39,463 bases of DNA from the IMG/VR virus record IMGVR_UViG_2875722834_000003, positions 1 through 39,463 of that record. One strand, 5' to 3'. The DNA comes from a virus (Duplodnaviria; Heunggongvirae; Uroviricota; Caudoviricetes). A program made the position numbers and the translations under genes. Below are positions 1 to 34,872 of the stretch, piece by piece. Each line of letters starts with the position of its first letter. The first letter of the stretch is position 1. The notes beneath the pieces were generated by a model. The model worked only from the letters and a program-made list of their open reading frames with translations. It was not told the origin of the DNA and did not search any database.

Positions 1-1284
1 TTACTTCTTCGCCTCTGCAACCACTTTACTACCCACGCCGCGGTTATTGTATTCCCACATGCGGTTGTAGTTAGTGTCATTCAGATTGCGCTGTATTTCG
101 TCGTTATCATCTACGCTGCCGGTATTACCCGCAAACGGACGATTAGAGATCACCGCATCGGCCCACGGTTTAGCCGTGTTAAAACCTTCGTTGATGGCGC
201 TATCACGGATCACCACCTGACCGTTGGTATTGGCATCAACATCCAGCGAGCGGCCCAGTTGCGCCACACCATCACCGAAAGCATTGAAACGGCTGTTTAC
301 GGCGAGGAAACCGTAGTAAATGTTGGACAGCGTAGCCGGTGCAAACACATACGCTTCTTGCTGAGTACGTGAGTTCACCACGCGGAATTCGGTGTTATCG
401 AACACCACTGCGCCGCGACCAGAAACGATATCCACATCCCCTTCAATGTAGCTGTTGGTCACCAGCGTACGCGGCTGACGATTCGTTTCCAGACGGTTCT
501 GCACACCGCTGTTGGTGACAAAGAAGGTGTTCTGACGACCGAGAATGTTAACGTTGTTAATCTGTACCTGGTCACCATCAGTACGCAGTGCCACCGCCGG
601 ATGGTTACCTGCATCTACGCTATCGCCCAGCGTGTTTTCGATGGTCAGATTTTGCAGTTGCAGGCCATTGTTTTGTGACCAGAAGACCGCAGAGCAGAGA
701 ACACCGATACTGTCGCTGCGTTTGCTCTGGCAGCTATCGTACATATACCACGCTGGTTTACCTGGCATATATTTGCCGCGCGGGTTGACGTCGTGACGCC
801 AGTCGGCAGGGCTCATGCCACCATCAAGGGAAAGCCCAATCTTCACATCAATCGGTTTTTCACCTGTACCGTACAGAGTAATTCCACCCGGAGCGGCAGG
901 GACATATACCGTTCCCTGATACTCACCAGGCATCACGGCAATATACTGGCGCTTGTTGGTACGCTTGATAATTGCCGCATCTACCGCCGCCTGAATCGTG
1001 GTATGCGTTACACCTTGAGTGCCCGCCGGGCCGACAACAAAGTCAGGTTGCGCAGGCAGGGTAATCGGGGAAGGATTCCACGCTGCAGCACCTGGTGTCA
1101 GGGATGCAAAATAGTGTTGAGCATCGAAATTCTGCGCTTCTTTTGCCGACAGAATCGGGCGAGAAGAGGTACCAGGCGCGGTTTGATCAGAAGGACGTTG
1201 ATCGGGCGGGGTTGAGCTACAGGCGGTCAGCGTCACGCCAAAAGCCAATGCCAGCGCCAGACGGGAAACTGAAAATGTGTTCAC
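1..1284 (-). CDS. ybhC: Host outer-membrane lipoprotein YbhC (pectinesterase-family putative acyl-CoA thioesterase)
   Basis: ORF-track 427 aa with GTG start at 1282-1284 and stop at 1-3; N-terminal lipoprotein signal ending LTAC; recalled identity to E. coli YbhC, the gene next to attB-lambda. From memory, not searched. Confidence 0.8.
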   Translation of the reverse strand: MNTFSVSRLALALAFGVTLTACSSTPPDQRPSDQTAPGTSSRPILSAKEAQNFDAQHYFASLTPGAAAWNPSPITLPAQPDFVVGPAGTQGVTHTTIQAAVDAAIIKRTNKRQYIAVMPGEYQGTVYVPAAPGGITLYGTGEKPIDVKIGLSLDGGMSPADWRHDVNPRGKYMPGKPAWYMYDSCQSKRSDSIGVLCSAVFWSQNNGLQLQNLTIENTLGDSVDAGNHPAVALRTDGDQVQINNVNILGRQNTFFVTNSGVQNRLETNRQPRTLVTNSYIEGDVDIVSGRGAVVFDNTEFRVVNSRTQQEAYVFAPATLSNIYYGFLAVNSRFNAFGDGVAQLGRSLDVDANTNGQVVIRDSAINEGFNTAKPWADAVISNRPFAGNTGSVDDNDEIQRNLNDTNYNRMWEYNNRGVGSKVVAEAKK

Positions 1285-1320
1285 AGGTTGCTCCGGGCTA
1301 TGAAATAGAAAAATGAATCC

Positions 1321-1440
1321 GTTGAAGCCTGCTTTTTTATACTAAGTTGGCATTATAAAAAAGCATTGCTTATCAATTTGTTGCAACGAACAGGTCACTA
1401 TCAGTCAAAATAAAATCATTATTTGATTTCAATTTTGTCC
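1321..1440. other. attL of lambda type: host B arm, 15-bp core, phage P' arm
   Basis: Core GCTTTTTTATACTAA at 1331-1345 read directly; upstream GTTGAAGCCT matches the bacterial B arm; downstream sequence matches the lambda P' arm (IHF-like TATCAATTTGTTG about 1371-1383; arm-type repeats CAGGTCACTA, TCAGTCAAAA, TAAAATCATT at 1391-1420) and runs into int. Confidence 0.9.
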
Positions 1441-2489
1441 CACTCCCTGCCTCTGTCATCACGATACTGTGATGCCATGGTGTCCGACTTATGCCCGAGA
1501 AGATGTTGAGCAAACTTATCGCTTATCTGCTTCTCATAGAGTCTTGCAGACAAACTGCGCAACTCGTGAAAGGTAGGCGGATCCCCTTCGAAGGAAAGAC
1601 CTGATGCTTTTCGTGCGCGCATAAAATACCTTGATACTGTGCCGGATGAAAGCGGTTCGCGACGAGTAGATGCAATTATGGTTTCTCCGCCAAGAATCTC
1701 TTTGCATTTATCAAGTGTTTCCTTCATTGATATTCCGAGAGCATCAACATGCAATGCTGTTGGGATGGCAATTTTTACGCCTGTTTTGCTTTGCTCGACA
1801 TAAAGATATCCATCTACGATATCAGACCACTTCATTTCGCATAAATCACCAACTCGTTGCCCGGTAACAACAGCCAGTTCCATTGCAAGTCTGAGCCAAC
1901 ATGGTGATGATTCTGCTGCTTGATAAATTTTCAGGTATTCGTCAGCCGTAAGTCTTGATCTCCTTACCTCTGATTTTGCTGCGCGAGTGGCAGCGACAGG
2001 GTTTGTTGTTATATGGCCTTCAGCTATTGCCTCTCGGAATGCATCGCTCAGTGTTGATCTGATTAACTTGGCTGACGCCGCCTTGCCCTCGTCTATGTAT
2101 CCATTGAGCATTGCCGCAATTTCTTTTGTGGTGATGTCTTCAAGTGGAGCATCAGGCAGACCCCTCCTTATTGCTTTAATTTTGCTCATGTAATTTATGA
2201 GTGTCTTCTGCTTGATTCCTCTGCTGGCCAGGATTTTTTCGTAGCGATCAAGCCATGAATGTAACGTAACGGAATTATCACTGTTGATTCTCGCTGTCAG
2301 AGGCTTGTGTTTGTGTCCTGAAAATAACTCAATGTTGGCCTGTATAGCTTCAGTGATTGCGATTCGCCTGTCTCTGCCTAATCCAAACTCTTTACCCGTC
2401 CTTGGGTCCCTGTAGCAGTAATATCCATTGTTTCTTATATAAAGGTTAGGGGGTAAATCCCGGCGCTCATGACTTCGCCTTCTTCCCAT
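1419..2489 (-). CDS. int: Integrase, tyrosine recombinase (lambda Int)
   Basis: 356 aa, MGRRRSHERRDLPPNLYIRNNGYYCYRDPRTGKEF..., recalled as essentially identical to lambda Int; overlaps xis and abuts the P' arm as in lambda. Confidence 0.95.
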   Translation of the reverse strand: MGRRRSHERRDLPPNLYIRNNGYYCYRDPRTGKEFGLGRDRRIAITEAIQANIELFSGHKHKPLTARINSDNSVTLHSWLDRYEKILASRGIKQKTLINYMSKIKAIRRGLPDAPLEDITTKEIAAMLNGYIDEGKAASAKLIRSTLSDAFREAIAEGHITTNPVAATRAAKSEVRRSRLTADEYLKIYQAAESSPCWLRLAMELAVVTGQRVGDLCEMKWSDIVDGYLYVEQSKTGVKIAIPTALHVDALGISMKETLDKCKEILGGETIIASTRREPLSSGTVSRYFMRARKASGLSFEGDPPTFHELRSLSARLYEKQISDKFAQHLLGHKSDTMASQYRDDRGREWDKIEIK

Positions 2490-2685
2490 TTCTGATCCTC
2501 TTCAAAAGGCTACCTGTTACTGGTCGATTTAAGTCAACCTTTACCGCTGATTCGTGGAACAGATACTCTCTTCCATCCTTAACCGGAGGTGGGAATATCC
2601 TGCATTCCCGAACCCATCGACGAACTGTTTCAAGGCTTCTTGGACGTCGCTGGCGTGCGTTCCACTCCTGAAGTGTCAAGTACAT
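2467..2685 (-). CDS. xis: Excisionase (lambda Xis)
   Basis: 72 aa MYLTLQEWNARQRRPRSLETVRRWVRECRIFPPPVKDGREYLFHESAVKVDLNRP..., matches recalled lambda Xis; 23-nt overlap with int start. Confidence 0.9.
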   Translation of the reverse strand: MYLTLQEWNARQRRPRSLETVRRWVRECRIFPPPVKDGREYLFHESAVKVDLNRPVTGSLLKRIRNGKKAKS

Positions 2686-2710
2686 CGCAAAGTCTCCGCA
2701 ATTACACGCA

Positions 2711-2733
2711 AGAAAAAACCGCCATCAGGCGGC
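2711..2733 (-). terminator. Intrinsic terminator (leftward transcription) between orf55 and xis
   Basis: Minus-strand RNA forms CCGCC-UGAU-GGCGG followed by UUUUUUCUU (plus strand AGAAAAAACCGCCATCAGGCGG). Confidence 0.5.
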
Positions 2734-2892: not shown

Positions 2893-2930
2893 TTATCATC
2901 TCCATAAAACAAAACTCGCCGTAGCGAGTT

Positions 2931-2960: not shown

Positions 2961-2992
2961 ACTGTTATTCACCTTTGACGGCAAGTTGCAGG

Positions 2993-20228: not shown

Positions 20229-20654
20229 ATGGCGACTGAGAAAAAGAATGTCGGTCGCCCTTCGGATTACCTGCCGGAGGTGGCTGATGATATCTGTGCG
20301 CTGCTTGCCTCCGGGGAAAGTCTGGTTAAGGTTTGCAAGCGCCCCGGCATGCCAGCAAAGGCTACTGTATTTCGCTGGCTGTCAGAGCATGACGAATTTA
20401 GAGACAAGTACGCGAAGGCAACTGAGGCGCGAGCTGATTCTATTTTCGAAGAGATATTCGAAATTGCTGACACTGCGATTCCAGATGCTGCTGAGGTGGC
20501 AAAGGCAAGACTTCGCGTTGATACCCGCAAATGGGCGCTGGCCCGAATGAATCCCCGTAAGTATGGCGACAAGGTAACTAACGAGCTTGTCGGCAAAGAC
20601 GGCGGCGCAATCCAGATTGAAACATCACCGATGAGCACTCTATTCGGAAAATGA
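20229..20654 (+). CDS. Terminase small subunit (Sf6 gp1 type)
   Basis: 141 aa MATEKKNVGRPSDYLPEVADDICALLASGESLVKVCKRPGMPAKATVFRWL... resembles recalled Sf6 small terminase; directly precedes TerL. Confidence 0.8.
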   Translation: MATEKKNVGRPSDYLPEVADDICALLASGESLVKVCKRPGMPAKATVFRWLSEHDEFRDKYAKATEARADSIFEEIFEIADTAIPDAAEVAKARLRVDTRKWALARMNPRKYGDKVTNELVGKDGGAIQIETSPMSTLFGK

Positions 20655-22066
20655 CTTCGATTAATCCTATCTTTGAACCGTTCATTGAGGCGCATCGCTA
20701 CAAAGTCGCCAAAGGCGGTCGAGGTAGCGGTAAATCATGGGCAATTGCGAGGCTGCTTGTTGAAGCGGCGCGCCGGCAGCCAGTGCGTATTCTCTGCGCT
20801 CGTGAACTGCAAAACAGTATCAGCGATTCGGTAATCCGGTTGCTTGAAGACACCATAGAGCGGGAAGGGTATTCGGCTGAGTTTGAAATTCAGCGTTCAA
20901 TGATTCGTCATCTCGGAACAAATGCTGAATTCATGTTCTACGGCATCAAAAACAATCCGACGAAGATTAAATCTCTCGAAGGCATTGATATCTGCTGGGT
21001 GGAAGAAGCGGAAGCGGTAACGAAGGAATCATGGGATATCCTGATACCAACCATCCGTAAGCCGTTCTCTGAAATATGGGTGAGCTTTAACCCGAAGAAC
21101 ATCCTCGACGATACCTATCAGCGATTCGTCGTAAATCCTCCCGATGATATTTGTTTGCTGACAGTGAACTACACCGACAACCCGCATTTTCCTGAAGTTC
21201 TCCGTCTGGAGATGGAAGAGTGTAAACGCAGAAATCCGACACTGTATCGTCACATCTGGCTTGGTGAGCCGGTAAGCGCAAGTGATATGGCAATCATCAA
21301 ACGTGAATGGCTTGAAGCTGCAACCGATGCGCACAAGAAACTCGGATGGAAAGCGAAAGGCGCTGTTGTTTCTGCACATGACCCATCAGATACAGGGCCG
21401 GATGCCAAAGGTTATGCATCGCGCCACGGTTCGGTAGTTAAGCGCATTGCCGAAGGTCTGCTGATGGACATCAACGAGGGTGCTGACTGGGCTACTTCGC
21501 TGGCGATTGAAGACGGCGCTGACCATTACCTGTGGGATGGTGATGGTGTTGGTGCCGGGCTACGCAGACAGACAACGGAAGCGTTCTCCGGCAAGAAAAT
21601 CACCGCCACGATGTTCAAGGGCAGCGAATCGCCATTCGATGAAGATGGGCCGTATCAGGCCGGAGCATGGGCTGATGAAGTCGTACAGGGTGACAACGTT
21701 CGCACTATTGGTGATGTGTTCCGCAATAAGCGAGCACAATTCTATTACGCGCTGGCTGACAGGCTGTATCTGACATATCGGGCGGTTGTTCACGGTGAGT
21801 ATGCAGACCCAGACGACATGCTGAGTTTCGACAAAGAAGCGATAGGCGAGAAGATGCTGGAGAAGCTGTTTGCAGAACTGACGCAGATTCAGCGCAAATT
21901 CAATAACAACGGGAAGCTGGAGCTTATGACTAAGGTCGAAATGAAGCAGAAGCTCGGTATTCCATCTCCTAACCTGGCTGATGCGCTGATGATGTGTATG
22001 CATTGCCCGGAGTCGGCTGCGCAACCCGACTATTCCAGTTACTCAATTCCTTGTGGTGTAGGTTGA
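20651..22066 (+). CDS. Terminase large subunit (ATPase/nuclease)
   Basis: 471 aa; Walker A KGGRGSGKS near the N-terminus; ATGA overlap with TerS; P22/Sf6 gene order. Confidence 0.9.
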   Translation: MTSINPIFEPFIEAHRYKVAKGGRGSGKSWAIARLLVEAARRQPVRILCARELQNSISDSVIRLLEDTIEREGYSAEFEIQRSMIRHLGTNAEFMFYGIKNNPTKIKSLEGIDICWVEEAEAVTKESWDILIPTIRKPFSEIWVSFNPKNILDDTYQRFVVNPPDDICLLTVNYTDNPHFPEVLRLEMEECKRRNPTLYRHIWLGEPVSASDMAIIKREWLEAATDAHKKLGWKAKGAVVSAHDPSDTGPDAKGYASRHGSVVKRIAEGLLMDINEGADWATSLAIEDGADHYLWDGDGVGAGLRRQTTEAFSGKKITATMFKGSESPFDEDGPYQAGAWADEVVQGDNVRTIGDVFRNKRAQFYYALADRLYLTYRAVVHGEYADPDDMLSFDKEAIGEKMLEKLFAELTQIQRKFNNNGKLELMTKVEMKQKLGIPSPNLADALMMCMHCPESAAQPDYSSYSIPCGVG

Positions 22067-22067
22067 T

Positions 22068-24266
22068 ATGGCAGAAAAAAAGATGACTGACTGGCATCGC
22101 AAGGTGCTGTGCAACTTTGATAATGCCTGGTCAGCAACGCAGGATATGCGTGAGCAGATTATTGAGGCTCAACGTTTCGTACGTGTGTCCGGCGCACAGT
22201 GGGAAGGCAGCACAAACGCTGGTTACTCATTTGATGAAGGCAGGTTTGAGCATTACCCGCGCTTTGAACTGAATAAGATTGCCCGTGAATGTGATCGCAT
22301 CATTGGCGAGTATCGACAGAATCGCATCAGCGTTAAGTTCAGGCCTAAGGATGACAAGGCATCGGAAGCGTTAGCCGAAAAAATGAACGGCAAATTCCGC
22401 GCTGACTATCAGGAAACATCCGGTGGCGAAGCGTGTGATAACGCATTTGATGATGCTGTAACGGGCGGATTCGGTTGTTTCCGCATGTGTGCCGATTACG
22501 AAGATGAAATGGATCCGAGTAACGAGCAACGCCGTATAAGCCTTCTTCCTGTTTACGACCCAGCGACATGCGTCTTCTTTGATCAGGACAGCAAGCAATA
22601 TGACCGCTCTGATGCTATGTGGGCTATGGAAATGTTCTCCATGACGCCTAAAGCGTTCGAGACTGAATACCCTGATTCCATCGCGGCAAGCCTTTCTCGT
22701 GATGACACTGGCACTCAATATGACTGGTCAACGCCAGATGCCATCTATGTTGGTCGCTACTACGAAGTTCGCATAGAGAAGGTGAAGCTCACGGCATGGC
22801 GCAACCCTGTTAGCGGAGAAACGGCAATCTATGATGAAGAGCAAATCAAAGATATTGTCGACGAGCTGACCGATGGCGCATTCGAACTGATTGGTGAGCG
22901 GACAGTGAAGAAACGCAGAGTTTATTGCGGTCTTCTGTCTGGCGCTGAATGGCTGGAAGAACCGAAGCGTATTCCGGGCGAACATATTCCTCTCATCCCG
23001 GTATATGGGCGTCGCTCATTTGTTGATAATCAGGAGCGAATCGAAGGCCACGCAGCAAAAGCGATGGATGCACAGCGTCTTGAGAACCTGATGGTTTCCA
23101 TGATTGCAGATAACGCTACTCAGGCTGGCGGTGATGGCATTCCTATCGTGGATGTTGATTTCATTCCCGGTCCATTAATGAATCACTGGGCAGAGAGAAA
23201 TAAGAAAAGGCCTGCAGTTCTTCCCATGACCAGCAAGAAGGACAAAAACGGAACGGTCATTTCAGAGGCTCAGGTTGCTGGCTGGACACCTCCGACACAA
23301 ATGCCTCCTGCTCTTGCCGGGCTATTGCAGTACACCGGAACGGCTATTCAGCAAATTACAGGTGCGTCGCAGCTTGAGAACATGCCGAGCAACGTCGCTA
23401 CCGATACCGTTGATAGCATCTTTAACCGGATGGACACGCAGTCCTATATCTACATGGACAACATGGCTAAATCCATGCGCCGTGCTGGCGTCGTGTGGCT
23501 TTCTATGGCTCGTGAAGTCTATGGCAGCGATACGCCAATGCGCATCGTTAATGAGGATGGCAGCGATGACGTGGCGCTGATGACTGGTGAAGTGGTTGAC
23601 CGTCAGACAGGGCAGGTTATCGCGCTTAACGACCTTTCGCAGGGTAACTATGAAGTGACTGTCGATGTCGGTCAGTCGTTCGCTACTCGCCGTGATGCAA
23701 CGGTTAAGTCGTTACTTTCCATGCTGGCACTTATCCCGCCAGGAACGCCGAAGCATGACCTTGTATCGTCGATGATTCTCGACAATATGGACGGCGAAGG
23801 GATGGACGACCTGAAAGAATACAACCGCAATCAGTTGCTTCTGTCTGGCGTTATCAAGCCGAGAACGCCTGAAGAACAGCAAATGGTTGAGCAGGCGAAA
23901 CAACAACAGGCCAGTCAGCCAGATCCGGCTATGGTTGCTGCGCAAGGTCAGCTTCTTGCTGGTCAGGCTGAATTGCAGAAAGCGCAGAACGAACAAGCAG
24001 CCATTCAGGTTAAAGCATTCCAGGCACAGACGGATGCTCAGGTTGCTGCGGCAAATGTTGTGAAAATCCTCGCATCTGCCGATAGCCAGCAAAAATCTGA
24101 TATCCGTGAGGCGCTGAAACTGCTCGGACAGTTCCAGCAACAGCAAGGAGATAATGCCCGTGCTGATGCAGAGCTTGTCCTGAAAAGTCAGGCACAGGGC
24201 CATGCGCTGCGCATGGACATCAGCAGCATCCTGCAAAAATCAACTCAGCAACAACCACAGCAGTAA
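22068..24266 (+). CDS. Portal protein (P22 gp1 type)
   Basis: 732 aa, size and position as P22 portal; Gln-rich C-terminal tail. Confidence 0.85.
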   Translation: MAEKKMTDWHRKVLCNFDNAWSATQDMREQIIEAQRFVRVSGAQWEGSTNAGYSFDEGRFEHYPRFELNKIARECDRIIGEYRQNRISVKFRPKDDKASEALAEKMNGKFRADYQETSGGEACDNAFDDAVTGGFGCFRMCADYEDEMDPSNEQRRISLLPVYDPATCVFFDQDSKQYDRSDAMWAMEMFSMTPKAFETEYPDSIAASLSRDDTGTQYDWSTPDAIYVGRYYEVRIEKVKLTAWRNPVSGETAIYDEEQIKDIVDELTDGAFELIGERTVKKRRVYCGLLSGAEWLEEPKRIPGEHIPLIPVYGRRSFVDNQERIEGHAAKAMDAQRLENLMVSMIADNATQAGGDGIPIVDVDFIPGPLMNHWAERNKKRPAVLPMTSKKDKNGTVISEAQVAGWTPPTQMPPALAGLLQYTGTAIQQITGASQLENMPSNVATDTVDSIFNRMDTQSYIYMDNMAKSMRRAGVVWLSMAREVYGSDTPMRIVNEDGSDDVALMTGEVVDRQTGQVIALNDLSQGNYEVTVDVGQSFATRRDATVKSLLSMLALIPPGTPKHDLVSSMILDNMDGEGMDDLKEYNRNQLLLSGVIKPRTPEEQQMVEQAKQQQASQPDPAMVAAQGQLLAGQAELQKAQNEQAAIQVKAFQAQTDAQVAAANVVKILASADSQQKSDIREALKLLGQFQQQQGDNARADAELVLKSQAQGHALRMDISSILQKSTQQQPQQ

Positions 24267-24356
24267 TTAACCCATAACGTGCAATGGCTGTCTTTATGAG
24301 GCCTGGCACCCTATTGCCTTCCGATGGGCTGAACATCGAGTAAACAGGGGTAACAA

Positions 24357-25250
24357 ATGGACCAGATGGCAGAAAACACACCAGAAGTTGAAATCGAAAC
24401 CGACGCGTCAGAGCAGATTCCTGATGATGTCGAACTGGCTGAAGAAGTCGAAACAGAAGATGGCAGTGAGTCCTCCGGCAATGCTGCAGAGGAAGCTACT
24501 GAAACTGATGACGACGAATCAGAACAGGAATTCTACTTTGGTGACGAAAAGCTGGATTCGCCAACCAGCGAAGATGGCGCAGAGCATGGACTGGTAAAAC
24601 ACCTGCGCAAGACGATTAAAGAGAAAGACCGCGAGCTGAAAGAGCTGATGCGTCAGTCTCAGAAACCCGTCGAGCAGCAGCCGGTAATTACTCAACCACC
24701 GCGAATGCCAAAACTGGACGATGAGGACATCGGTTTCGATGAAGAAATTTACCAGCAACGCATGGCTAAGTGGGCAGAGGATAACGGCAAGTACCAGCAA
24801 CAGGAGATGGCTCGCAAGCAGAAGGAGCAGGAGATTCAGGCTGCCTATCAAGAGCGATTATCCAAATATCAGCAACGTGTTAAGGCTCTCAAAGTTCCTG
24901 GCTATCAGGAAGCTGAGCAGGCCGTACTCGAGGAAATTCCCATCGAGACACAAAACGCGATCCTGTTTGAGTCAGAGAAGCCGGAAATCGTTGTTCTGGC
25001 GCTCGGTCGCAACGCTGAACTGCGCAAGCAACTGGCAGAAGCTACCAACCCCGTAGCAATTGGTCGTCTGCTGGAACGTATCGAATCGAAGGCCAGAATC
25101 ATGCCAAAAGCAAAAACCACGGCAGCCACAACCCCGACAGTTAAGGGGAGCAACGGCGCAGTAATCAACAACCTCGACAAACTGAAAGCCAAGGCGCTGG
25201 AAACTGGTGACTGGACGCCGTATTTCGCCGCTAAAAAGGCAAAAAAATAA
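24357..25250 (+). CDS. Scaffolding protein (P22 gp8 type)
   Basis: 297 aa, acidic N-terminus, predicted helical/coiled-coil, basic C-terminal coat-binding tail; between portal and coat. Confidence 0.8.
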   Translation: MDQMAENTPEVEIETDASEQIPDDVELAEEVETEDGSESSGNAAEEATETDDDESEQEFYFGDEKLDSPTSEDGAEHGLVKHLRKTIKEKDRELKELMRQSQKPVEQQPVITQPPRMPKLDDEDIGFDEEIYQQRMAKWAEDNGKYQQQEMARKQKEQEIQAAYQERLSKYQQRVKALKVPGYQEAEQAVLEEIPIETQNAILFESEKPEIVVLALGRNAELRKQLAEATNPVAIGRLLERIESKARIMPKAKTTAATTPTVKGSNGAVINNLDKLKAKALETGDWTPYFAAKKAKK

Positions 25251-25268
25251 CCTATCGGAGCATTAAGC

Positions 25269-26522
25269 ATGGCTAACCAATTAGCAAAAGACCTTGAAAT
25301 CATGTTCGAAAACTACGTTGAAGGCTTTGAGGCCGCCTGCGTAGTTTCCCGTAACGCTAAAAAATTCCGTCCCGGTGATACAGCAATGCAGCGAGCAGGT
25401 GATGTTCTGTATCGTCCGCAGCATTACCACATGAACATTGAGGAAGGCCTAGACCTCAGCGGCAAAACGCCAACAGCACTGGTTCAGCGCCTTGTTCCTT
25501 CTGTGTTCAAGGAGCCGAAAAACATTCTGTACACTCTGGATGCGCGTGAAATGCGTGACCCGGAACATAAAACTGAAGCTGGTCGCGCCGCAGGTATGCG
25601 CCTTGCTGCACAGATTGACTCTGACCTGATTTCCATGGTTACGCAGCGTGCTACTAACGTGATCACGATGGCTGACTCAACCACAGGTTCACAGGGCCGT
25701 GATTTGTGGAACTGTGCGGCAGGTATTGATGCCACCATGACGGCGATTGGTGTACCTCAGGGTATCAACCGTCGCTCTTTCTGGAACCCCTTCAACTACA
25801 AAGACCTTGCTGGCGAGCTTGGTCACCGTGCCTATGCTCAGGGCGCAACCCTGACAGCATACGAAAAAGCGCAAATCCCTCCGGTTGCGTCCTTCGATAG
25901 CTACAAGACCGATATTTCTGGTCGTGTTCCGAAGGGTACAGCAACTTCCATTACGCTGGCAGCAGCACCTGCGCACAAGGTTGAAGCGAAAGATGCTAAC
26001 GATATGCCAGTGGATAACCGGCAGGGGACCATTACGGTATCTGCTGAAGGTTTGCAGGTTGGCGATGCGTTTACCATCGCAGGGGTGAATTCTGTACACC
26101 AGATCACCAAAGATACCACCGGGCAGCCGCAGGTATTCCGCGTTCTGGCAGTAAGCGGAACGACAGTAACTATCTCCCCGAAAATTCTGCCGCCTGACAA
26201 CGCGGATGTCGCCAGCCGACCATATGCAAACGTTGATGCTAATGCGGCAAGTAGCGCAGCAATCACCATTCTCAACAAAAATGCCGCACCGGCTAACCTG
26301 TTCTGGGCTGATGGTTCTGTTGAACTGATGTACGGCAAGCTGGCGTTCCCAACTGGTCAGGGTCCACAGGTAATGACAGCAACCACCGAGCAGGGCGCTA
26401 CGCTGATCATGTCTTACGCCTTCGACCACATCAAAGGTGTAACCACTGCGCGTTTCACCACCCTGTACGGTTGCTCTGTACTTGTTCCTGAATATACGGG
26501 CATCGTTATTGCCGGGCAGTAA
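25269..26522 (+). CDS. Major coat protein (P22 gp5 type)
   Basis: 417 aa; position after scaffold; recalled resemblance to P22/Sf6 coat; followed by a strong terminator hairpin. Confidence 0.85.
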   Translation: MANQLAKDLEIMFENYVEGFEAACVVSRNAKKFRPGDTAMQRAGDVLYRPQHYHMNIEEGLDLSGKTPTALVQRLVPSVFKEPKNILYTLDAREMRDPEHKTEAGRAAGMRLAAQIDSDLISMVTQRATNVITMADSTTGSQGRDLWNCAAGIDATMTAIGVPQGINRRSFWNPFNYKDLAGELGHRAYAQGATLTAYEKAQIPPVASFDSYKTDISGRVPKGTATSITLAAAPAHKVEAKDANDMPVDNRQGTITVSAEGLQVGDAFTIAGVNSVHQITKDTTGQPQVFRVLAVSGTTVTISPKILPPDNADVASRPYANVDANAASSAAITILNKNAAPANLFWADGSVELMYGKLAFPTGQGPQVMTATTEQGATLIMSYAFDHIKGVTTARFTTLYGCSVLVPEYTGIVIAGQ

Positions 26523-26527
26523 TTTTG

Positions 26528-26550
26528 GTGGGGCTTCGGCCCCATTTTTA
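26528..26550 (+). terminator. Intrinsic terminator after the coat gene
   Basis: GTGGGGC-TTCG-GCCCCAT stem-loop (UUCG tetraloop) followed by TTTTTA. Confidence 0.6.
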
Positions 26551-26563
26551 TTGGGAGAAGACA

Positions 26564-26752
26564 ATGGCACGAACAATGCTCTATAAGCCTGGCAACATGA
26601 TCACCTGTGGTCAGTTTGCTGTCGATTACATCATTGTTGATGACGAAGAAGTTAAATCTCACCTGAAAAAAGGCTGGGTAAAAACTCCTGAAGAAACCGC
26701 AACGAAGCATAAAGTGGCTAAGGCGGAAGAAGATGGCGAAAACGAAGGGTGA
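26564..26752 (+). CDS. Hypothetical small protein (62 aa)
   Basis: ORF track 26525..26752; ATG 26564 with GGGAGAAG upstream; MARTMLYKPGNMITCGQFAVDYIIVDDEEV... Confidence 0.5.
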   Translation: MARTMLYKPGNMITCGQFAVDYIIVDDEEVKSHLKKGWVKTPEETATKHKVAKAEEDGENEG

Positions 26753-27194
26753 TCTCGTTCTTAAGGCTTTACGAAAAGCCGGGCTGTATTCCAATGCCAC
26801 GTTGACAGATGCTGACCCTCAGGCAATTGAAGATGCCATTAATGACCTCGAAGACATGATGGCAGCATGGCAGGCTAAAGGTATCGAGCTTGGATATCAG
26901 TTTGCTGATACAGAAAACGGCATCATGCCGTTACCTGACGATGATTCAGGTATCCCTGCATGGGCAAATGATGGCGTCGCTTTGAAACTCGCTGTGCAAG
27001 TGTGCATGGATAACGTCATTCAGCCGTCAGACGCTCTCCTTACCGCTGCTGACAGTGCATATCAGACAATCTGTATCGCTTTAACCAAAATACCACCACT
27101 TGAGCGGCGAAATGACATGCCTCGCGGTAGTGGTAACAAAAGCGCGTTTACGTGGAATCGGTTTTACATCGAGAAAGATGATCCGAGTACGTGA
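26733..27194 (+). CDS. Head completion / tail adaptor protein (P22 gp4 type)
   Basis: 153 aa MAKTKGDLVLKALRKAGLYSNATLTDADPQAIEDAINDLEDMMAAW... resembles recalled P22 gp4. Confidence 0.75.
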   Translation: MAKTKGDLVLKALRKAGLYSNATLTDADPQAIEDAINDLEDMMAAWQAKGIELGYQFADTENGIMPLPDDDSGIPAWANDGVALKLAVQVCMDNVIQPSDALLTAADSAYQTICIALTKIPPLERRNDMPRGSGNKSAFTWNRFYIEKDDPST

Positions 27195-27203
27195 GGTGAA
27201 TAA

Positions 27204-28622
27204 ATGCCGATTCAGCAACTTCCGCTTATGAAAGGTGTCGGCAAAGACTTTCGAAACGCCGACTATATCGACTATCTGCCAGTGAATATGCTGGCTACAC
27301 CAAAAGAAATCCTTAACAGCAGCGGATATCTTCGCTCATTCCCGGGCATTGCCAAACGTTCTGATGTGAACGGTATATCGCGCGGCGTCGAGTACAACAT
27401 GGCGCAGAGTGCTGTATATCGCGTGTGTGGGGGCAAGCTGTACAAAGGAGAAAGTGAAGTCGGTGATGTTGCCGGAAGTGGTCGTGTATCAATGGCGCAT
27501 GGTCGGACATCTCAGGCTGTAGGCGTTAATGGCCAACTGGTCGAGTATCGTTATGATGGCACGGTTAAAACAGTCTCAAACTGGCCTACAGACAGCGGAT
27601 TCACGCAGTATGAGTTAGGTTCTGTTCGTGACATTACGCGCTTACGCGGGCGTTATGCGTGGTCAAAAGACGGCACTGATTCATGGTTTATCACTGACCT
27701 TGAAGACGAATCGCATCCTGACCGCTACAGCGCACAATATCGCGCAGAATCGCAGCCGGACGGTATCCTCGGCATCGGCACATGGCGAGACTTCATCGTC
27801 TGCTTTGGTTCATCGACGATTGAATATTTCTCCCTGACTGGTGCAACCACCGTTGGTGCAGCTTTGTATGTCGCACAGCCATCACTGATGGTGCAAAAAG
27901 GCATCGCCGGGACTTACTGCAAAACGCCATTCGCTGATTCCTATGCGTTTATCAGCAATCCGGCAACAGGTGCGCCGTCTGTGTATATCATCGGCTCCGG
28001 TCAGGTATCACCAATCGCCAGCGCGAGCATTGAGAAAATACTACGCTCCTACACTGCTGATGAACTGGCTGATGGCGTGATGGAATCGTTGCGCTTTGAT
28101 GCTCATGAGTTGCTGATTATCCACCTGCCTCGCCACGTCCTAGTGTATGACGCATCTTCAAGCGCTAATGGTCCGCAATGGTGTGTGCTGAAAACAGGCC
28201 TGTATGACGATGTGTACCGCGCTATCGACTTCATTTACGAAGGCAATCAGATAACGTGCGGCGATAAGCTGGAATCTGTTACCGGGAAACTGCAATTCGA
28301 CATCAGCAGCCAGTACGACAAGCAACAAGAACACCTGCTGTTTACTCCGTTGTTCAAAGCAGATAACGCCAGAGTTTTCGACCTTGAAGTTGAGTCGTCA
28401 ACTGGCGTTGCGCAGTATGCTGACCGCCTGTTCCTCTCTGCAACCACTGACGGCATCAATTACGGACGTGAGCAGATGATTGAGCAGAATGAACCGTTCG
28501 TTTACGACAAACGCGTTTTGTGGAAGCGAGTCGGGCGCATCAGGAAAAATGTCGGCTTCAAATTGCGCGTTATCACGAAGTCACCTGTCACTCTGTCTGG
28601 TTGCCAGATAAGGATTGAGTAA
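27204..28622 (+). CDS. Packaged-DNA stabilisation / tail hub protein (P22 gp10 type)
   Basis: 472 aa, same length and position as P22 gp10. Confidence 0.75.
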
Positions 28623-29323
28623 TGGCGGATTCGAATCTCAATGTGCCGGTAATCATCCAAGCTACGCGGCTCGATACATCAATCCTTCCACGCAATATAT
28701 TCAGCCAGTCTTACCTGCTGTATGTCATAAATCAGGGTGCTGATGTTGGCGCAATTGCCGGGAAGGCAAATCAGGCTGGTCAGGGCGCTTACGATGCTCA
28801 GGTGAAAAACGATGAACAGGATGTCGAACTGGCTGACCACGATGCAAGAATCTCCGCAAACACAAAAGCGATAAATCTCCTTGAGGTCAGGTTAACAACT
28901 GCCGAAGGGAAGATAGTCGTACTGCGTAGCGATGTTGATTACTTGCTGGATGAGGTTATCGATATTCAGGCGCATCTGGTCACTGTTGACCAAAGACTGG
29001 ATGGCGTAGAAAGCGATGTATCTGACATTAAGAGTGATTACGTATCGAAAACTGTAACCGAATCGCAGTCTCTTGCGTCACCGCTGGATGTAAAAACATC
29101 ATATTCAGTTGATGGAATTCAGGTTGTTGGAGCAAGAAATACCGGATGGACTGCAGCCACAGGTACGCCACTTCTTGGCTCATTCAACGCTAACCAGTCA
29201 TACACTGTCGGCACTACGTACACACAATCCGAAGTCGCAGCTCTCGCTACAGGTTTGCAGCAGGCGCGGCAGCGTATTCTGGCGCTTGAAACGGCACTTA
29301 GATTACATGGGCTGATTGACTGA
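28622..29323 (+). CDS. Tail needle protein (P22 gp26 type)
   Basis: 233 aa [73 protein letters not shown]... matches recalled P22 gp26, including C-terminal ...LRLHGLID. Confidence 0.85.
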
Positions 29324-29778
29324 TGATTACATTCAAACCAACGCGAAACATCGACCTGATCGAAGCAGTCGGAAATCACCCTGACATTATTGCCGGAAGC
29401 AACAACGGTGATGGATACGACTACAAGCCTGAATGCCGTTACTTCGAGGTGAACGTGCACGGGCAGTTCGGCGGCATTGTTTACTATCAGGAGATTCAGC
29501 CGCTGACCTTTGATTGCCACGCCATGTACCTGCCAGAGATTCGCGGATTCAGCAAGGAAATCGGGCTGGCTTTCTGGCGATACATTCTGACTAACACCAC
29601 CGTTCAGTGCGTCACATCGTTCGCTGCACGCAAATTCCGCCACGGGCAGATGTACTGCGCAATGATTGGCCTTAAGCGTGTAGGAACCATCAAGAAATAC
29701 TTCAAAGGCGTGGATGACGTGACGTTTTACAGCGCCACACGCGAAGAACTAATCGACTTCCTGAATCACGGGAGATAG
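29323..29778 (+). CDS. gp14-position protein (P22-like head assembly/ejection accessory)
   Basis: 151 aa, between the needle and ejection-protein genes as in P22. Confidence 0.6.
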   Translation: MITFKPTRNIDLIEAVGNHPDIIAGSNNGDGYDYKPECRYFEVNVHGQFGGIVYYQEIQPLTFDCHAMYLPEIRGFSKEIGLAFWRYILTNTTVQCVTSFAARKFRHGQMYCAMIGLKRVGTIKKYFKGVDDVTFYSATREELIDFLNHGR

Positions 29779-29780
29779 CC

Positions 29781-30473
29781 ATGTTATATGCATTTAAGCT
29801 GGGCAGAAAACTGCGCGGCGAGGAACCTTATTGCCCTGAAAAAGGCGGGAAAGGTGGCAGCTCTGATAAAAGCGCAAAGTATGCAGCAGAAGCTCAGAAG
29901 TATGCCGCAGACCTGCAAAATCAGCAGTGGCAGACGATCATGAAAAACCTTGCTCCGTTCACGCCGCTTGCGGAGCAGTATGTTAACCAGCTTCAGAACC
30001 TTTCCAGTTTAGAAGGTCAGGGGCAGGCACTTAATCAGTATTACAACTCTCAGCAGTATAAAGACCTTGCAGGTCAGGCTCGTTACCAGAGTCTTGCTGC
30101 TGCGGAGGCGACGGGTGGACTTGGTTCGACAGCCACAAGCAATCAACTGGCTACGATCGCGCCGACACTCGGTCAGTCTTGGTTATCAAATCAGATGAGC
30201 AATTACAACAATCTGGCAAACGTTGGGCTTGGTGCGCTGCAAGGTCAGGCAAACGCTGGGCAGACATACGCCAACAACATGAGCAGCATTGCACAGCAAA
30301 GCGCAGCACTTGCCGCTGCTAATGCCAATAAACCATCAAGTCTTCAGACTGCAATTAGCGGTGGCACGTCTGGTGCGATTGCCGGTGCAGGTCTTGCCAG
30401 CCTTTTGGGAACATCAACGCCTTGGGGCGCTGGCATTGGTGCTGGTATCGGATTGCTTGGCTCGTTGTTTTAA
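29781..30473 (+). CDS. Ejection protein (P22 gp7 type)
   Basis: 230 aa, Gln/Ala/Gly-rich low-complexity protein at the gp7 position. Confidence 0.7.
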   Translation: MLYAFKLGRKLRGEEPYCPEKGGKGGSSDKSAKYAAEAQKYAADLQNQQWQTIMKNLAPFTPLAEQYVNQLQNLSSLEGQGQALNQYYNSQQYKDLAGQARYQSLAAAEATGGLGSTATSNQLATIAPTLGQSWLSNQMSNYNNLANVGLGALQGQANAGQTYANNMSSIAQQSAALAAANANKPSSLQTAISGGTSGAIAGAGLASLLGTSTPWGAGIGAGIGLLGSLF

Positions 30474-30482
30474 GGGGTAATC

Positions 30483-31871
30483 ATGGCTACTTGGCAAGGA
30501 ACAAACGGCGGATTGTTGGCTGGTATCGGCGGCGTCAACTCAAACGCTCCGAGCGTAAATGACATCGGCAATACGCTTCAGCTTATCAGGCAGAACAATG
30601 ATATTGAGCGTTCAGGCGCTAACAATGTTGGGCTGACTGCTTTGCAAGGCCTTTCAGGTATTGCGGGGGTGTTTCAGCAGGAAAAGCAGGCTCAGCGGCA
30701 GAAAGAATTTCAGCAGGCGTACGCTAATGCTTATGCGTCTGGTGATCGCAGTGCTTTGCGTCAGTTGGCTACTCAATATCCAGAACAGATTGAATCCGTT
30801 CGTAAAGGCATGGGATTCATTGATGAAGATCAGCGTAATTCTATCGGCACCTTAGCGGCTGGCGCACGCCTTGCGTCATCGTCTCCAGAAGCAATGCAAT
30901 CATGGCTGCAAAACAACGCCAAGGAACTGACTCGCGTCGGTGTTGACCCTAACAGCGTTGCTCAGATGTATCAGCAGAATCCTTCAGGATTTGGTGAGTT
31001 TGTTGATCACCTTGGGATGGCTGCTCTCGGTCCGATTGACTACTTCAATGTTCAGGACAAGATGGCTGGTCGTGAGATTGATCGCGGAAAACTTGCAGAG
31101 ACAATCCGCAGCAATCAGGCTGGCGAGGCGCTAACAGCACGAGGCCAGAACATCACGATGCGCGGTCAGGACTTATCTGCTTCTACTGCGCGACGCGGGC
31201 AGGATTTGGCAATGCAGCGAGCGTCAACAAGAGGAACCGCTGGGAATGATGAGCGTACAGTTCAGTTATCAGATGGCAGAACTGTAACGGTAGGCGGGAA
31301 ACTTCACGGCGCTGGGGCTAATGCGTTCTACGAAGGCATTGACAACGAGGGGAATATGGTTCGCGTTCCTGCCAGTTCAATCGCAGCGCCTGCAACATCG
31401 TCTGCATCAGCACAAAACTATGCCATGAAGAAGGATATCGACGCGATCGCAAATGCAGACGCTTCTGCTCTCGATTTCATGACAGGAATGACAGGCGGTG
31501 CAGGTAATCCAGCAATTGGTGCTGATGTTCGCAGCCGATTAACAGGAAAAGAGCAGCGCCAGTTATATAACTCAGCACAACGTATTCAGGGAAGAATGCA
31601 GAATCAGGGCGTGGCGGCAGCAAGGGACATGGGTGCCAGTGGTATTAACACCGTTGCAGAAGCGAAGATGTATTTTCAGGGGATGCCGCAGGTTGACTAT
31701 TCAAGCCCGGAGGCTATGCAGCAGTCGATTCGTGAGATTCAGGAATACACCAACAATTACAACCAACAATATAACGTTAATGTTGGTAAATCTCAGCGGC
31801 AGCAATCTCAACCTGCACAGGTATCACAGCCAGCAGCCAGCAGTAACTTTTCTTCACTATGGGGTGATTAA
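30483..31871 (+). CDS. Ejection protein (P22 gp20 type)
   Basis: 462 aa, at the gp20 position and of similar size (recalled 471 aa in P22). Confidence 0.7.
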
Positions 31872-33868
31872 TGGCTAAAGCATGGAAAGATGTTATCGCC
31901 TCTCCACAGTATCAGGCGTTAGCACCAGAACAAAAAGCGCAGGCTCAGGAGCAATACTTCAATGAAGTCGTGGCCCCGCAAGCCGGAGAAAATGCAGAGC
32001 AGGCCAAACAAGCTTTCTATGCTGCCTATCCATTGCCATCTGTGCAGCCAGTGGAGACACAGCAACCAGTATCACAGCAACAACCACAGCAAAGTGGATT
32101 TATGTCTGATCTTGGTGAAGCCGTGAAAGAAACTGGTCGCGGACTGGTGCAGGCTGGCGTGAACGTGGCAAACATACCTGCATCAGTTGCCGATGCTGTA
32201 ACAAGCGCGGCGGCTTGGGCCGGAGGTAAACTCGGTATTGGCGATGGAACATATCAACCAGCGCCACGAGTAACAACGCAGGGATTAGAGCATGACTTTG
32301 GCCTTCAGCAAGGCGCGCTGACTCCACAAACTACAGAGGGCAGGGTATTTGCTGAGGCATTGCCTTACCTCACTCCTGCTGGCATTGAGAGAGCGGCAAC
32401 ACAGGCACCAACACTTGCTGGTCGAATTGCTCAGGGGGCAACTCGACTTCTCTCAGAAAACGCAGTTGGATCACTTGCTGCAAACAGTATGAAAGATGAT
32501 GCGGAAGCACTCGCTACCGATTTAGGTGTTGGCGTTCTGGCAGGCGGCGCTATTAACGCTGCTGGACGTGGTTTAGGTGCTGCTTATCGTGGCGTTCGCG
32601 GTGCTATTGCGCCAGAAGCGCAGCAAGCTATCAGATTTGCAGAGCGTGAAGGAGTTCCTCTGCACACCACAGACCTGTTACAACCCACTTCCCGCGTCGG
32701 AAAAATGGCGCAGACTACAGCAGAAAATATCCCTCTGGCTGGCACAAGCGGAATGAGAGCAACGCAACAGGAAGCGAGAAGCCAGTTGGTGCAGAGATTT
32801 GCCGATAAATTCGGTGAGTATGATCCAGCGGTTGTTATTGACAGCCTTAAAGCGAAAACATCAGGAATTCGTCGTGCCGCCGGTAATCGACTGGAGCAGG
32901 TTCAGAATGCTATGGCTGGAGTAAACATTCAGCCTGCGCGAGCAATTCAGCAGATTGATACAGAAATATCTAACCTGCAGAAGCTTGGTAAGGTCGCCGA
33001 TAACGAGACTATTTCAAAACTTCAGTCCTATCGTGATGAGCTTGTTCGCAATGCTGGTCCTGATGGTCCGGTAAATCTGGATTTGAAGCAATTAAGCGAT
33101 CTGCGCAGCCAGTTCAGAATGGACGTGAAGGGTGAACGACCAGTGTTACCAAACCGTTCCGATGCTGCCATTCAGCGCGTTTACAAGGCGATGACAGACG
33201 ATATCAATGGTGCCATTGGTCAGAATCTTGGCAACGATACTCTCCGTAAATATCAGCAGGCCAATGCCGTATACGCTGACGAAGCGGCGAAACTAAAGAA
33301 TACCAGGCTGAAGAATGTTCTCATGAAAGGCGACCTGACGCCGGAAGTTGTCAACAACATGCTATTCAGCAAGAACAAATCGGAAATTAAGACGCTGTAT
33401 AACTCAGTTGGTCGTGTTGGCAGGGCGCAAATGCGCAATGGCATCATTGGAAAGGCGATGGAGAAATCTGGCGGATCCCCTGACCAGTTCCTTCGGCAGC
33501 TTAACATCCTGCAAAACCAGACTGGCATCACATTTAAAGGTCAGGAAGCCGCTTATCTGAAAGGATTGAAAAACTACCTGCAATCCACGCAGCAGGCTGC
33601 AAAAGCGGCAGTAACAACACCAACAGGGCAGCAAACCATCCCGTTCATTATCGGGTATGGGACGGCAATGAACCCGGCGACAACTGGCGCAGCGGTAAGC
33701 TACGGACTTCTTACTCGCGCCTATGAGAGCGAGCCATTCAGAAATGCAATGCTCCGAATGGCAAACACACCACGCGGATCAACAGCGTTTGAGAAAGCCA
33801 TGCAGCAGGCGCAAAAGGCCATTAACGCCCTGACTCAGGGTGCCAAGTCTGATGCGTTGTCAGAATAG
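31871..33868 (+). CDS. Ejection protein (P22 gp16 type)
   Basis: 665 aa, at the gp16 position; last gene of the rightward morphogenesis operon. Confidence 0.7.
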   Translation: MAKAWKDVIASPQYQALAPEQKAQAQEQYFNEVVAPQAGENAEQAKQAFYAAYPLPSVQPVETQQPVSQQQPQQSGFMSDLGEAVKETGRGLVQAGVNVANIPASVADAVTSAAAWAGGKLGIGDGTYQPAPRVTTQGLEHDFGLQQGALTPQTTEGRVFAEALPYLTPAGIERAATQAPTLAGRIAQGATRLLSENAVGSLAANSMKDDAEALATDLGVGVLAGGAINAAGRGLGAAYRGVRGAIAPEAQQAIRFAEREGVPLHTTDLLQPTSRVGKMAQTTAENIPLAGTSGMRATQQEARSQLVQRFADKFGEYDPAVVIDSLKAKTSGIRRAAGNRLEQVQNAMAGVNIQPARAIQQIDTEISNLQKLGKVADNETISKLQSYRDELVRNAGPDGPVNLDLKQLSDLRSQFRMDVKGERPVLPNRSDAAIQRVYKAMTDDINGAIGQNLGNDTLRKYQQANAVYADEAAKLKNTRLKNVLMKGDLTPEVVNNMLFSKNKSEIKTLYNSVGRVGRAQMRNGIIGKAMEKSGGSPDQFLRQLNILQNQTGITFKGQEAAYLKGLKNYLQSTQQAAKAAVTTPTGQQTIPFIIGYGTAMNPATTGAAVSYGLLTRAYESEPFRNAMLRMANTPRGSTAFEKAMQQAQKAINALTQGAKSDALSE

Positions 33869-33957
33869 CTTCGCAAACACCAGGAACGTGCAAAAACCAA
33901 ATATGTAGAACGCAATATTCATCATATCTCTTTGCATAAATCCTCCGTAATGGATGG

Positions 33958-34218
33958 TTAGTTGCTGTCTTTTTTATATAGCTCCTTTAGCGTGTCAAAG
34001 ACAATTTTCTTAACCATATCAGATTGTTGTTCTGCCATACGCTCTGCATCGTCAATGTAAACTGGTGCAGAGCTTTGTTTAGCCAATGATTCTTCAATCG
34101 CTGCAATTATCTCTGAGTTCAGCGACCTGTTATTCATCTTCGCGCGCTGTTTAATTTTCGCGTGGAGTTCATGCGGAAGTCTCAAGTGAAACTGCGCCTC
34201 GTCGTATTTGCTGTACAT
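33958..34218 (-). CDS. mnt: Mnt-like ribbon-helix-helix repressor
   Basis: ORF track 33958..34251; ATG 34216-34218 gives 86 aa MYSKYDEAQFHLRLPHELHAKIKQRAKMNNRSLNSEI...DDAERMAEQQSDMVKKIVFDTLKELYKK, aligning with recalled P22 Mnt (HFNFRMPMEV...NDAERLADEQSELVKKMVFDTLKDLYKK). Confidence 0.8.
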   Translation of the reverse strand: MYSKYDEAQFHLRLPHELHAKIKQRAKMNNRSLNSEIIAAIEESLAKQSSAPVYIDDAERMAEQQSDMVKKIVFDTLKELYKKDSN

Positions 34219-34291
34219 CCTTGATGCCTCACCAGTTGGGTGGAATGGCATCGTAACCTACTGGATAAATACTCAATAGTACCATTTCGGT

Positions 34292-34314
34292 ATGCAATCA
34301 CATCATGATTGCAT
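34292..34314. promoter_or_regulatory. Perfect 9-bp inverted repeat (ATGCAATCA-catca-TGATTGCAT), candidate RHH operator
   Basis: Read directly; lies in the 131-bp gap between mnt and the HNH gene. Confidence 0.5.
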
Positions 34315-34349
34315 CATATCATTCGTCTGGAGCAATGAAATGTCAGATA

Positions 34350-34850
34350 TCACCTACTCAACAGATGGTCAGCAACCATGTTTGCTGCCTTATAAGCTAT
34401 AGCAGCTTCATCAATGGTGTTGAATCTCCCAAGGGTTATGTTTTTACCTGAGACATTTATCTGAGCTTGCCATTGATTTCTGGCTTGACAGAAAGTTACC
34501 CCCTTGATTCCAGCATTGCTATTTCGAGGTCCGACATTTAATGCATTTACGACTCTGCTGACATCCCTAAGGTTTGAGATTGCGTTATTTCTTCTGTTTC
34601 TATCAATGTGGTCAATCTCTTGTTTTGGCCATTCGCCATATACATACAGCCAGGCAAGTCTATGTGCAAAATATCTTACGCCATCAATATTAATTGCGTT
34701 ATATCCATAAGAAATTGTGCCAGCAACTTTCCCAACAGCACCTCTGGCGCTTAATTTCTTTTTCCAAGTGAAAATTCCTGTTTCTTTATTGTAATCGAGA
34801 ACCTCCATAAGGCGCTCCCGAGTTACTACCTCGTGACGTCTCTTACTCAT
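34350..34850 (-). CDS. HNH endonuclease with AP2-type DNA-binding domain (homing-endonuclease-like)
   Basis: ORF track 34350..34892 begins at TTG; ATG 34848-34850 with GGAG 7 nt upstream gives 166 aa; motifs [13 protein letters not shown]...[18 protein letters not shown] (HNH) and C-terminal [15 protein letters not shown]...[17 protein letters not shown] (AP2-like); about 37 % GC. Confidence 0.75.
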
Positions 34851-34872
34851 TATTTTCTCCGGAATGTTTATT

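Follow-up and report, generated by a model that had tools for sequence, protein, structure and literature searches.

P22-like phages of Escherichia coli resembling the prophage analysed here have been described before. Huey is a Lederbergvirus podovirus that was isolated on E. coli K-12 and has an O16-specific tailspike (PMC12243541). A relative of Huey, the P22-like phiHS3 of E. coli HS, was shown by experiment to integrate upstream of ybhC; it excises spontaneously as well as after mitomycin C treatment and performs lateral transduction (bioRxiv 10.64898/2026.05.19.726188). The chromosomal site of lambda was listed earlier as an unusually often occupied intergenic hot spot (Bobay et al., PMC3603311). 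Another P22-like prophage, Gally, sits between torT and torS, indicating that P22-like phages use other lambdoid integration sites too, and a promoter at its left boundary was compared by the authors with one in prophage HK022, which regulates torS in MG1655.

The DNA considered here is a stretch of 39,463 nucleotides (IMG/VR record IMGVR_UViG_2875722834_000003), in the following called the window. It reads as one lambdoid genome in prophage gene order. Its left end very probably contains the attL, int and xis of a complete module of lambda specificity, carried by a P22-like prophage of the Lederbergvirus/'Hueyvirus' type of 38.8 kb that occupies attB-lambda in E. coli CP025739.1, with ybhC on one side and ybhB-bioA on the other. 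Beyond correct annotation this matters little: it is now settled where the prophage begins and ends, at which host locus it sits and from which genome it comes.

The left prophage junction

By local blastn, window 1331-2968 corresponds to lambda J02459 27724-29361 with 99.2% identity. Over 1331-2760 (lambda 27724-29153; megablast with window 1285-2760 as query) identity is 99.8%, and in the pairwise alignment of this part three nucleotides differ from lambda, at positions 1748, 1999 and 2511. The homology begins with the first base of the att core, and to the left of 1331 the pairwise alignment revealed no homology to lambda. The 15-bp core itself is found as an exact match once in the window and has the same sequence as lambda 27724-27738, a segment annotated as misc_recomb; when up to two mismatches are allowed, 2 matches are found in the window as compared to 0.09 expected. 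Within the core, TTTATAC at 1336-1342 is taken here to be the 7-bp overlap, as established for lambda, and the names of the sites in the P' arm (C', H' and P'1-P'3) were likewise assigned on the assumption that established lambda knowledge applies. Judged by its sequence, the segment 1321-1422 has the B-O-P' structure of an attL. The coordinates of this and the other features are collected in Table 1.

Scans of the whole window for Rfam families and for tRNA genes were both negative, which means that integration did not occur into a tRNA gene and that a curated RNA family is absent. In a scan of 1200-3100 with promoter and terminator consensus sequences, promoter-like sites were not in excess over shuffled sequence. 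The same scan picked up a small number of hairpins resembling terminators, some upstream of xis and some close to the orf55 homologue, all of them inside the lambda-homologous segment.

Table 1. Features of the prophage and its flanks (positions refer to the window; the last four features were read in CP025739.1)
Feature	Position	Strand	Basis
Host gene ybhC, gal-side flank of attB-lambda	1..1284	-	427-aa ORF; annotated ybhC in every E. coli genome that matched
Intergenic DNA of the host, with the B arm of attL at its end (...GTTGAAGCCT)	1285..1330	+	Contiguous with B'-ybhB in 3,487 genomes with empty attB
att core of attL, 15 bp, GCTTTTTTATACTAA	1331..1345	+	Exact match; same 15-mer at attR
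P' arm of attL: C' half-site, H', P'1-P'3	1346..1422	+	100% identical to lambda 27739-27815
H', match to IHF consensus, TATCAATTTGTTG	1371-1383	+	Within P' arm
Three tandem arm-type Int sites P'1-P'3	1391-1422	+	Within P' arm
int, lambda-type tyrosine integrase, 356 aa	1419..2489	-	354/356 residues identical to lambda Int
xis, lambda excisionase, 72 aa	2467..2685	-	71/72 residues identical to lambda Xis
Putative CII-type activator site TTGCGTGTAATTGC (TTGC-N6-TTGC), at lambda pI position	2698..2711	-	Pattern match; surroundings identical to lambda
Homologue of lambda orf55	2725-2892	-	blastn against lambda; phrog_676 match (5e-40), family of unknown function
End of lambda-derived segment	2968 (lambda 29361)		blastn against lambda
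CI repressor	8781-9422	-	HTH_3 and Peptidase_S24 domains; 34% identical to lambda CI
Cro	9527-9742	+	No significant match to lambda Cro
Second TTGC-N6-TTGC, at pRE position	9895-9908	-	Inside 5' part of resident cII
P22-like packaging, head, ejection and tailspike genes	20229..37020	+	Pfam, PHROG, blastn
gtrC-like O-antigen modification gene	37056-38543	-	Gene calls
gtrB	38540-39463	-	Gene calls
Segment homologous to lambda tI/sib region	attR side		94.6% identity to lambda
P1-H1-P2-X1-X2 block	P arm		93.1% identity to lambda
C site and core	P arm		100% identity to lambda
F/H2 segment, 49 bp	P arm		61% identity to lambda; flanks 93-100%

Integrase and excisionase

Are the two recombination proteins likely to be functional? 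Int matches the Pfam families Arm-DNA-bind_1 (7e-33) and Phage_integrase (3e-40) and has the build of a heterobivalent tyrosine integrase, with an arm-binding domain at the N-terminus and a catalytic domain of the R-K-H-R-H-Y type, in which all six catalytic residues (R212, K235, H308, R311, H333 and Y342) are intact. Xis matches the Pfam family Exc (4e-41). As in lambda, xis lies upstream of int and the two reading frames overlap by 23 nt (2467-2489). The amino acid replacements relative to lambda are H164P and I248V in Int and G59S in Xis. Since P164 and V248 are both also present in Int of the isolated phage Huey, H164P and I248V represent natural polymorphisms and not lesions. By the same analogy, occurrence in an isolated phage, Int with H164P and I248V and Xis with G59S would be expected to be active. 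The original prediction, that Int and Xis are lambda proteins and that the core and the P' arm have lambda sequence, is therefore borne out: int-xis is near-identical to that of lambda.

The right junction and the host site

The window ends at the start codon of gtrB, so that gtrA and attR are located just outside. The right junction was therefore read beyond the window, in E. coli CP025739.1 (locus L009), which was reached via an exact match to the gp16 protein and which is identical to window 21871-39463 at 17,593 of 17,593 compared positions. Among the 5,426 complete RefSeq E. coli genomes, by comparison, none covered as much as 80% of window 15000-39463. The gtr genes of this contig match the Pfam families Glycos_transf_2 and GtrA_DPMS_TM. 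About 90 bp after gtrA a homologue of lambda 27472-27738 follows that ends in the identical core, giving the order gtrA, lambda-type P arm, identical 15-bp core, B' (CTTGAGCGAAACG...), ybhB and bioA. The attR core occupies positions 18301-18315 of L009, equivalent to 40171-40185 in window numbering and about 708 bp past the window end, and the distance from core to core amounts to 38,840 bp. The same attR is also present in three relatives reached through a match to GtrC (L002, L003 and L005), none of which is the source of the window. Both junctions thus contain the same core, flanked by B and B' of the attB in the ybhC/ybhB intergenic region, and the attB that is reconstructed when the B and B' flanks are joined is found uninterrupted in 3,487 of the 5,426 complete RefSeq E. 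coli genomes surveyed. The original prediction hinged on an attR, made up of P arm, core and B', downstream of gtrA, and expected ybhC on the left and a right junction facing the ybhB-bioA side; the attR found in CP025739.1 has precisely this position and this orientation.

The far end of the prophage is also informative with regard to the question whether a single element was integrated. Lambdoid prophages pile up at hot spots and it could be imagined that the remnant of a lambda-like siphovirus, reduced to int-xis, lies beside an independent P22-like prophage with an integrase and att sites of its own. P22-like prophages with identical GtrC are indeed found at three different chromosomal sites, which attests to the variety of integration sites within the P22-like group, and for one of those at another site (L006) a different integrase, of the Arm-DNA-bind_3 type, was called. 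However, in the prophage described here the lambda-type P arm and core come directly after gtrA. Moreover, a second integrase was not found among the early ORFs scanned, the window contains no second core beyond the chance-level match with two mismatches, and the genes are arranged as in one lambdoid genome. In addition, the free phage Huey contains the same int-xis-attP within a circular P22-like genome of 38.6 kb. A composite origin is in consequence extremely improbable and, given that the P arm adjoins gtrA and that the scanned early ORFs include no second integrase, effectively excluded. The lambda-type attachment sites and the P22-like genes are best read as parts of one prophage.

Unlike the P' arm, the P arm of CP025739.1 differs visibly from that of lambda, with 88.9% identity overall. 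P arms of other phages are more similar to it, namely those of HK106 (93.5%, the closest phage), Huey (92.7%), JEP4 (92.5%), HK97 (91.9%) and 434 (91.8%). As the P arms of HK106, HK97 and 434 are closer than the one of lambda, the P arm does not go beyond the variation that occurs naturally among lambda-type attP sites. Motifs P1 and P2 are located in fully conserved columns of a three-way P-arm alignment, and the matches to the IHF consensus at H1 and H2 keep the orientation and the 78-nt spacing that they have in lambda. The F/H2 segment is diverged (Table 1), and Huey contains the same variant of it as the CP025739.1 prophage. It seems unlikely that this segment is a natural attP allele of its own, in which the Fis/IHF architecture is altered. 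If it were true, timing or efficiency of excision would change, and in a pac-packaging P22-like phage with late genes pointing toward attR this would set the extent to which ybhB-bio-uvrB is subject to lateral transduction.

Immunity and control of the integration genes

The immunity region is not of lambda origin. No blastn match to lambda was found between 8626 and 9748, and phage mEp213 matches the cI-cro region (8620-9760) at 99.8% of the nucleotides; the prophage accordingly does not belong to the lambda immunity group as defined by lambda CI, Cro and operators. The low similarity of its repressor to lambda CI (Table 1) together with the match to mEp213 supports the prediction that the prophage would be heteroimmune to lambda, as originally proposed.

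Competition with lambda for attB had been proposed as well, and an occupied site combined with a different immunity makes interference with normal integration plausible. According to classical lambda genetics, an incoming heteroimmune lambda can still recombine with a resident prophage at its attL or attR, and secondary sites are available to it as well. Because recombination at the resident attL and attR is possible, occupation of the site would reduce or alter normal integration of lambda but not abolish it. Among the papers available, a search on heteroimmune double lysogens found none that is directly relevant. From a practical point of view, lysogens of such prophages have no free attB for integration tools based on lambda.

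The remaining early region is a mixture of genes of different descent. N is 92% identical to lambda N and is flanked by stretches that match lambda 35496-35583 and 38247-38362, where NutL and NutR are annotated. The cII gene product is 98.9% identical to HK620 cII as compared to 53% to lambda CII. An ORF of 296 aa in the position of O has no Pfam hit, and its nucleotide sequence is 98.5% identical to a stretch of Huey annotated as an O-like initiator. The early region also encodes an Erf recombinase, a DnaB-type helicase and ORFs of unknown function, and lambda-like nin genes, Q, S, R and Rz are present.

How could int and xis be regulated in such an environment? Lambda CII and P22 C1 bind the same TTGC repeat. 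The pattern TTGC-N6-TTGC occurs 6 times in the whole window against 3.8 expected and is thus not enriched. Only two of the matches, those where pI and pRE are expected, are considered meaningful, and these only by their position. In the HK620 record cII-binding sites are annotated at both corresponding positions. The conservation of the motif and of the sequence around it suggests that regulation of int-xis is probably lambda-like in spite of the foreign regulators.

Late genes and integrity of the prophage

The late genes comprise, in conserved order, the gene set of a P22-type virion: small and large terminase, portal, scaffold, coat, gp4, gp10, needle, gp14, gp7, gp20, gp16 and tailspike. 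Two genes of the opposite (minus) strand, mnt and an HNH gene, lie among them. Pfam matches are P22_portal, P22_CoatProtein, P22_Tail-4, Phage_stabilise, P22_gp7, Inj_translocase and Phage_P22_gp16, and for the tailspike Head_binding/HK620_9_C; small terminase and tail needle were matched by PHROG. At the nucleotide level the late genes match phiv205-1, vB_EcoP-720R6, CUS-3, Kapi1, Huey, Sf101, HK620 and Sf6 in pieces with 93-96% identity, being closest to Huey, Sf101 and CUS-3. For the head genes the closest match is Huey, with window 20229-31019 being 95.8% identical to Huey 1-10791 over 10.8 kb. The assignment of the morphogenesis genes as P22/Sf6-like in the original prediction agrees with both the P22 Pfam families and the similarity to Huey. 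This gene content points to a short-tailed virion and to headful (pac) packaging.

These genes also bear on the question whether the prophage is still mobile. The lambda-type int-xis-attL could be a non-excising fossil in a defective, domesticated prophage. Such an origin would be in line with the high frequency of the lambda-type attL at ybhC: the junction ybhC-B-O-P'-int is found in 1,920 of the 5,426 complete E. coli genomes (35%), and genomes of the E. coli B/BL21 lineage are among those matching ybhC-int-xis. Furthermore, a decayed example is found at the same site in strain MB19, where int-xis, an IS1, an ORF of the tailspike region and gtrCBA are present without head genes. In the prophage described here, however, the two att sites are intact and have the same core, int and xis encode full-length proteins, and neither an IS element nor a truncation was seen. 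Terminase, portal, scaffold and coat have the ORF lengths of their counterparts in Huey (471, 732, 297 and 417 aa), and the size of 38,840 bp from core to core is typical of the group, the genomes of Huey and HK620 measuring 38,575 bp and 38,297 bp, respectively. We therefore regard decay to a fossil as unlikely and a complete prophage as the preferred reading. The right junction, gtrA-P arm-core-ybhB, is found in 94 of the same 5,426 genomes.

Proposed mechanism of integration and excision

The recombination reaction would follow the scheme of lambda. The N-terminal domain of Int is expected to bind arm-type sites and its C-terminal domains core-type sites. By bending the H sites IHF would allow formation of an intasome, in which Int bridges arm-type and core-type sites, and strand exchange would then proceed across the 7-bp overlap. 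Integration would be the reaction of attP with attB, excision the reaction of attL with attR, the latter needing Xis, and in addition Fis, on the P arm. By analogy with phiHS3, integration and excision at attB-lambda may be expected also for this prophage.

Synthesis of the two proteins could be controlled at several levels. The resident CII of the HK620 type may activate pI at the TTGC-N6-TTGC site. Since N and the matches to the nut regions are of the lambda type, transcripts from pL should read into xis-int after induction, and N-antiterminated transcription from pL would thus supply both Int and Xis. In the prophage, the segment homologous to tI/sib beside attR would be separated from int, and the excised circle would bring the two together again, as in lambda. 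If the phage were to package in situ, as the related phiHS3 does, the bio-uvrB side of the chromosome would be mobilised.

The module was presumably acquired through the ordinary modular recombination of lambdoid phages. Such a history would be consistent with the other parts of the mosaic that are found in the same genome, namely lambda-like N/nut, nin, Q and lysis genes, the immunity region of mEp213, cII of the HK620 type and head genes of the Huey type.

Comparison with known lambdoid phages

How does the locus compare with the known systems? With lambda (sib-attP-int-xis, J02459 27472-29361) the prophage shares the core, the P' arm, Int, Xis, the orf55 homologue, the CII site at pI and tI/sib, and it is inserted at the same site in the same orientation, ybhC-BOP'-int...POB'-ybhB-bioA. 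It differs from lambda by its P22-like virion genes, mEp213 immunity, HK620-type cII, Erf and DnaB-type helicase. Phage phiHS3 is similar according to its published description, but has a capsule-specific tailspike and, in place of gtrABC, a single gene resembling an O-antigen ligase (bioRxiv 10.64898/2026.05.19.726188). Huey (PQ850609; Lederbergvirus, proposed 'Hueyvirus') shares int-xis-attP with 98.9% nucleotide identity, including an Int that is 99.7% identical and the variant of the P arm. In contrast, its tailspike, repressor and Q region differ from those of the prophage, and between tailspike and attP a UmuD-like gene is found where the prophage has gtrABC. The same lambda-type int-xis-attP is also present in JEP4 and vB_EcoP-720R6, both of which are isolated P22-like podoviruses.

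HK620, Sf6 and P22 share with the prophage the organisation of the virion genes and the lambdoid genome plan, HK620 with 84-97% nucleotide identity in pieces, but not the integration module. HK620 had originally been named next to lambda for a comparison of int-xis; it is not a relative of the integration module, having an Int of the CPS-53 type with 23% identity in a partial alignment. The opposite combination is seen in HK97, HK106 and 434, which have a lambda-type int-xis-attP with 98-99% nucleotide identity, and in mEp213, which shares the immunity region. These four phages are siphoviruses, also by their GenBank classification, and their head and tail genes are unrelated to the P22-like set. 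The prophage is hence one more case in which integration modules are freely exchanged between siphoviral and podoviral lambdoid phages, and a lambda int-xis-att on a P22-like prophage is, as Huey and its relatives illustrate, an already known and ordinary lambdoid mosaic.

The gtr cassette and the right end of the prophage

The window begins at the stop codon of ybhC (position 1) and ends at the start codon of gtrB (position 39463), both of which are gene boundaries. Because of this right-hand limit gtrA (363 bp) and attR, which are found on the source contig (E. coli CP025739.1), are left out, although they are missed by only about 0.7 kb. P22-like prophages that occupy three different chromosomal sites (loci L001-L006, see table) carry terminally an identical GtrC of 495 residues together with gtrA and gtrB; the seroconversion cassette thus assorts independently of the integration module. 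In one of these prophages (L006) an integrase of the Arm-DNA-bind_3 type lies beside an exonuclease I gene.

Features and their locations
Feature	Location	Context or domains
gtr cassette, site 1	L002, L003, L005	ybhB side of attB-lambda
gtr cassette, site 2	L001, L006	adjoins PBP5-type carboxypeptidase gene
gtr cassette, site 3	L004	third chromosomal site
HNH-AP2 homing-endonuclease-like gene	window 34350-34920	between mnt and tailspike gene; Pfam HNH_3, AP2
F/H2 segment of attR P arm	source contig 18248-18296	just past right end of window
PAPS-reductase-domain ORF, 310 aa	window 13093-14025	nin region
Lambda-type N and NutL/NutR-matching stretches	window 8118-8625 and 9749-9864	flank immunity region

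How common is such an occupant of attB-lambda? Among 5,426 complete E. coli genomes the site is empty in 3,487, a lambda-type attL at ybhC is present in 1,920, and the gtrA-attR-ybhB junction is found in 94. Strain MB19 (NZ_CP073981.1) carries at this site a decayed version with int-xis, IS1, an ORF of the tailspike region and gtrCBA.

Variable and mosaic segments

The HNH-AP2 gene overlaps the 5' end of the tailspike gene and is assigned by a Pfam match to HNH_3 (2.5e-16), the match to AP2 being below Pfam's cut-off. Since a sibling prophage that likewise occupies this site (GCA_024386245.1), 99.8% identical to the one studied here, has 33 bp where the latter has 566 bp (34355-34920), the gene is a recent presence/absence polymorphism.

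N is 92% identical to lambda N in amino acid sequence, the stretches matching the annotated NutL and NutR regions of lambda are 97–98% identical in nucleotides, and the immunity region enclosed by them is non-lambda, with cI/cro of the lambdoid siphovirus mEp213 (99.8%). The recombination break-points lie near the edges of the immunity cassette. Further downstream, window 12638-14335 corresponds to lambda nin region 40566-42263 (97.7%), and as the PAPS-reductase-domain ORF falls inside this segment, it is likely the homologue of nin290 (ninC).

Attachment sequences

The window contains two matches to the 15-bp att core with at most two mismatches, as compared to 0.09 expected from shuffles. 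With two mismatches GCTTATTCATACTAA (7364-7378) is core-like, but no other evidence speaks for a secondary att site here, and it is taken as a chance match despite this excess.

Within the P arm of attR the 49-bp F/H2 segment is only 61% identical to lambda, as compared to 93–100% for its flanks. The match to the IHF consensus of H2 is kept in the diverged segment, and the same variant is present in the isolated P22-like phage Huey. The P arms of HK106, HK97 and 434 are nearer to that of this prophage than is the P arm of lambda.
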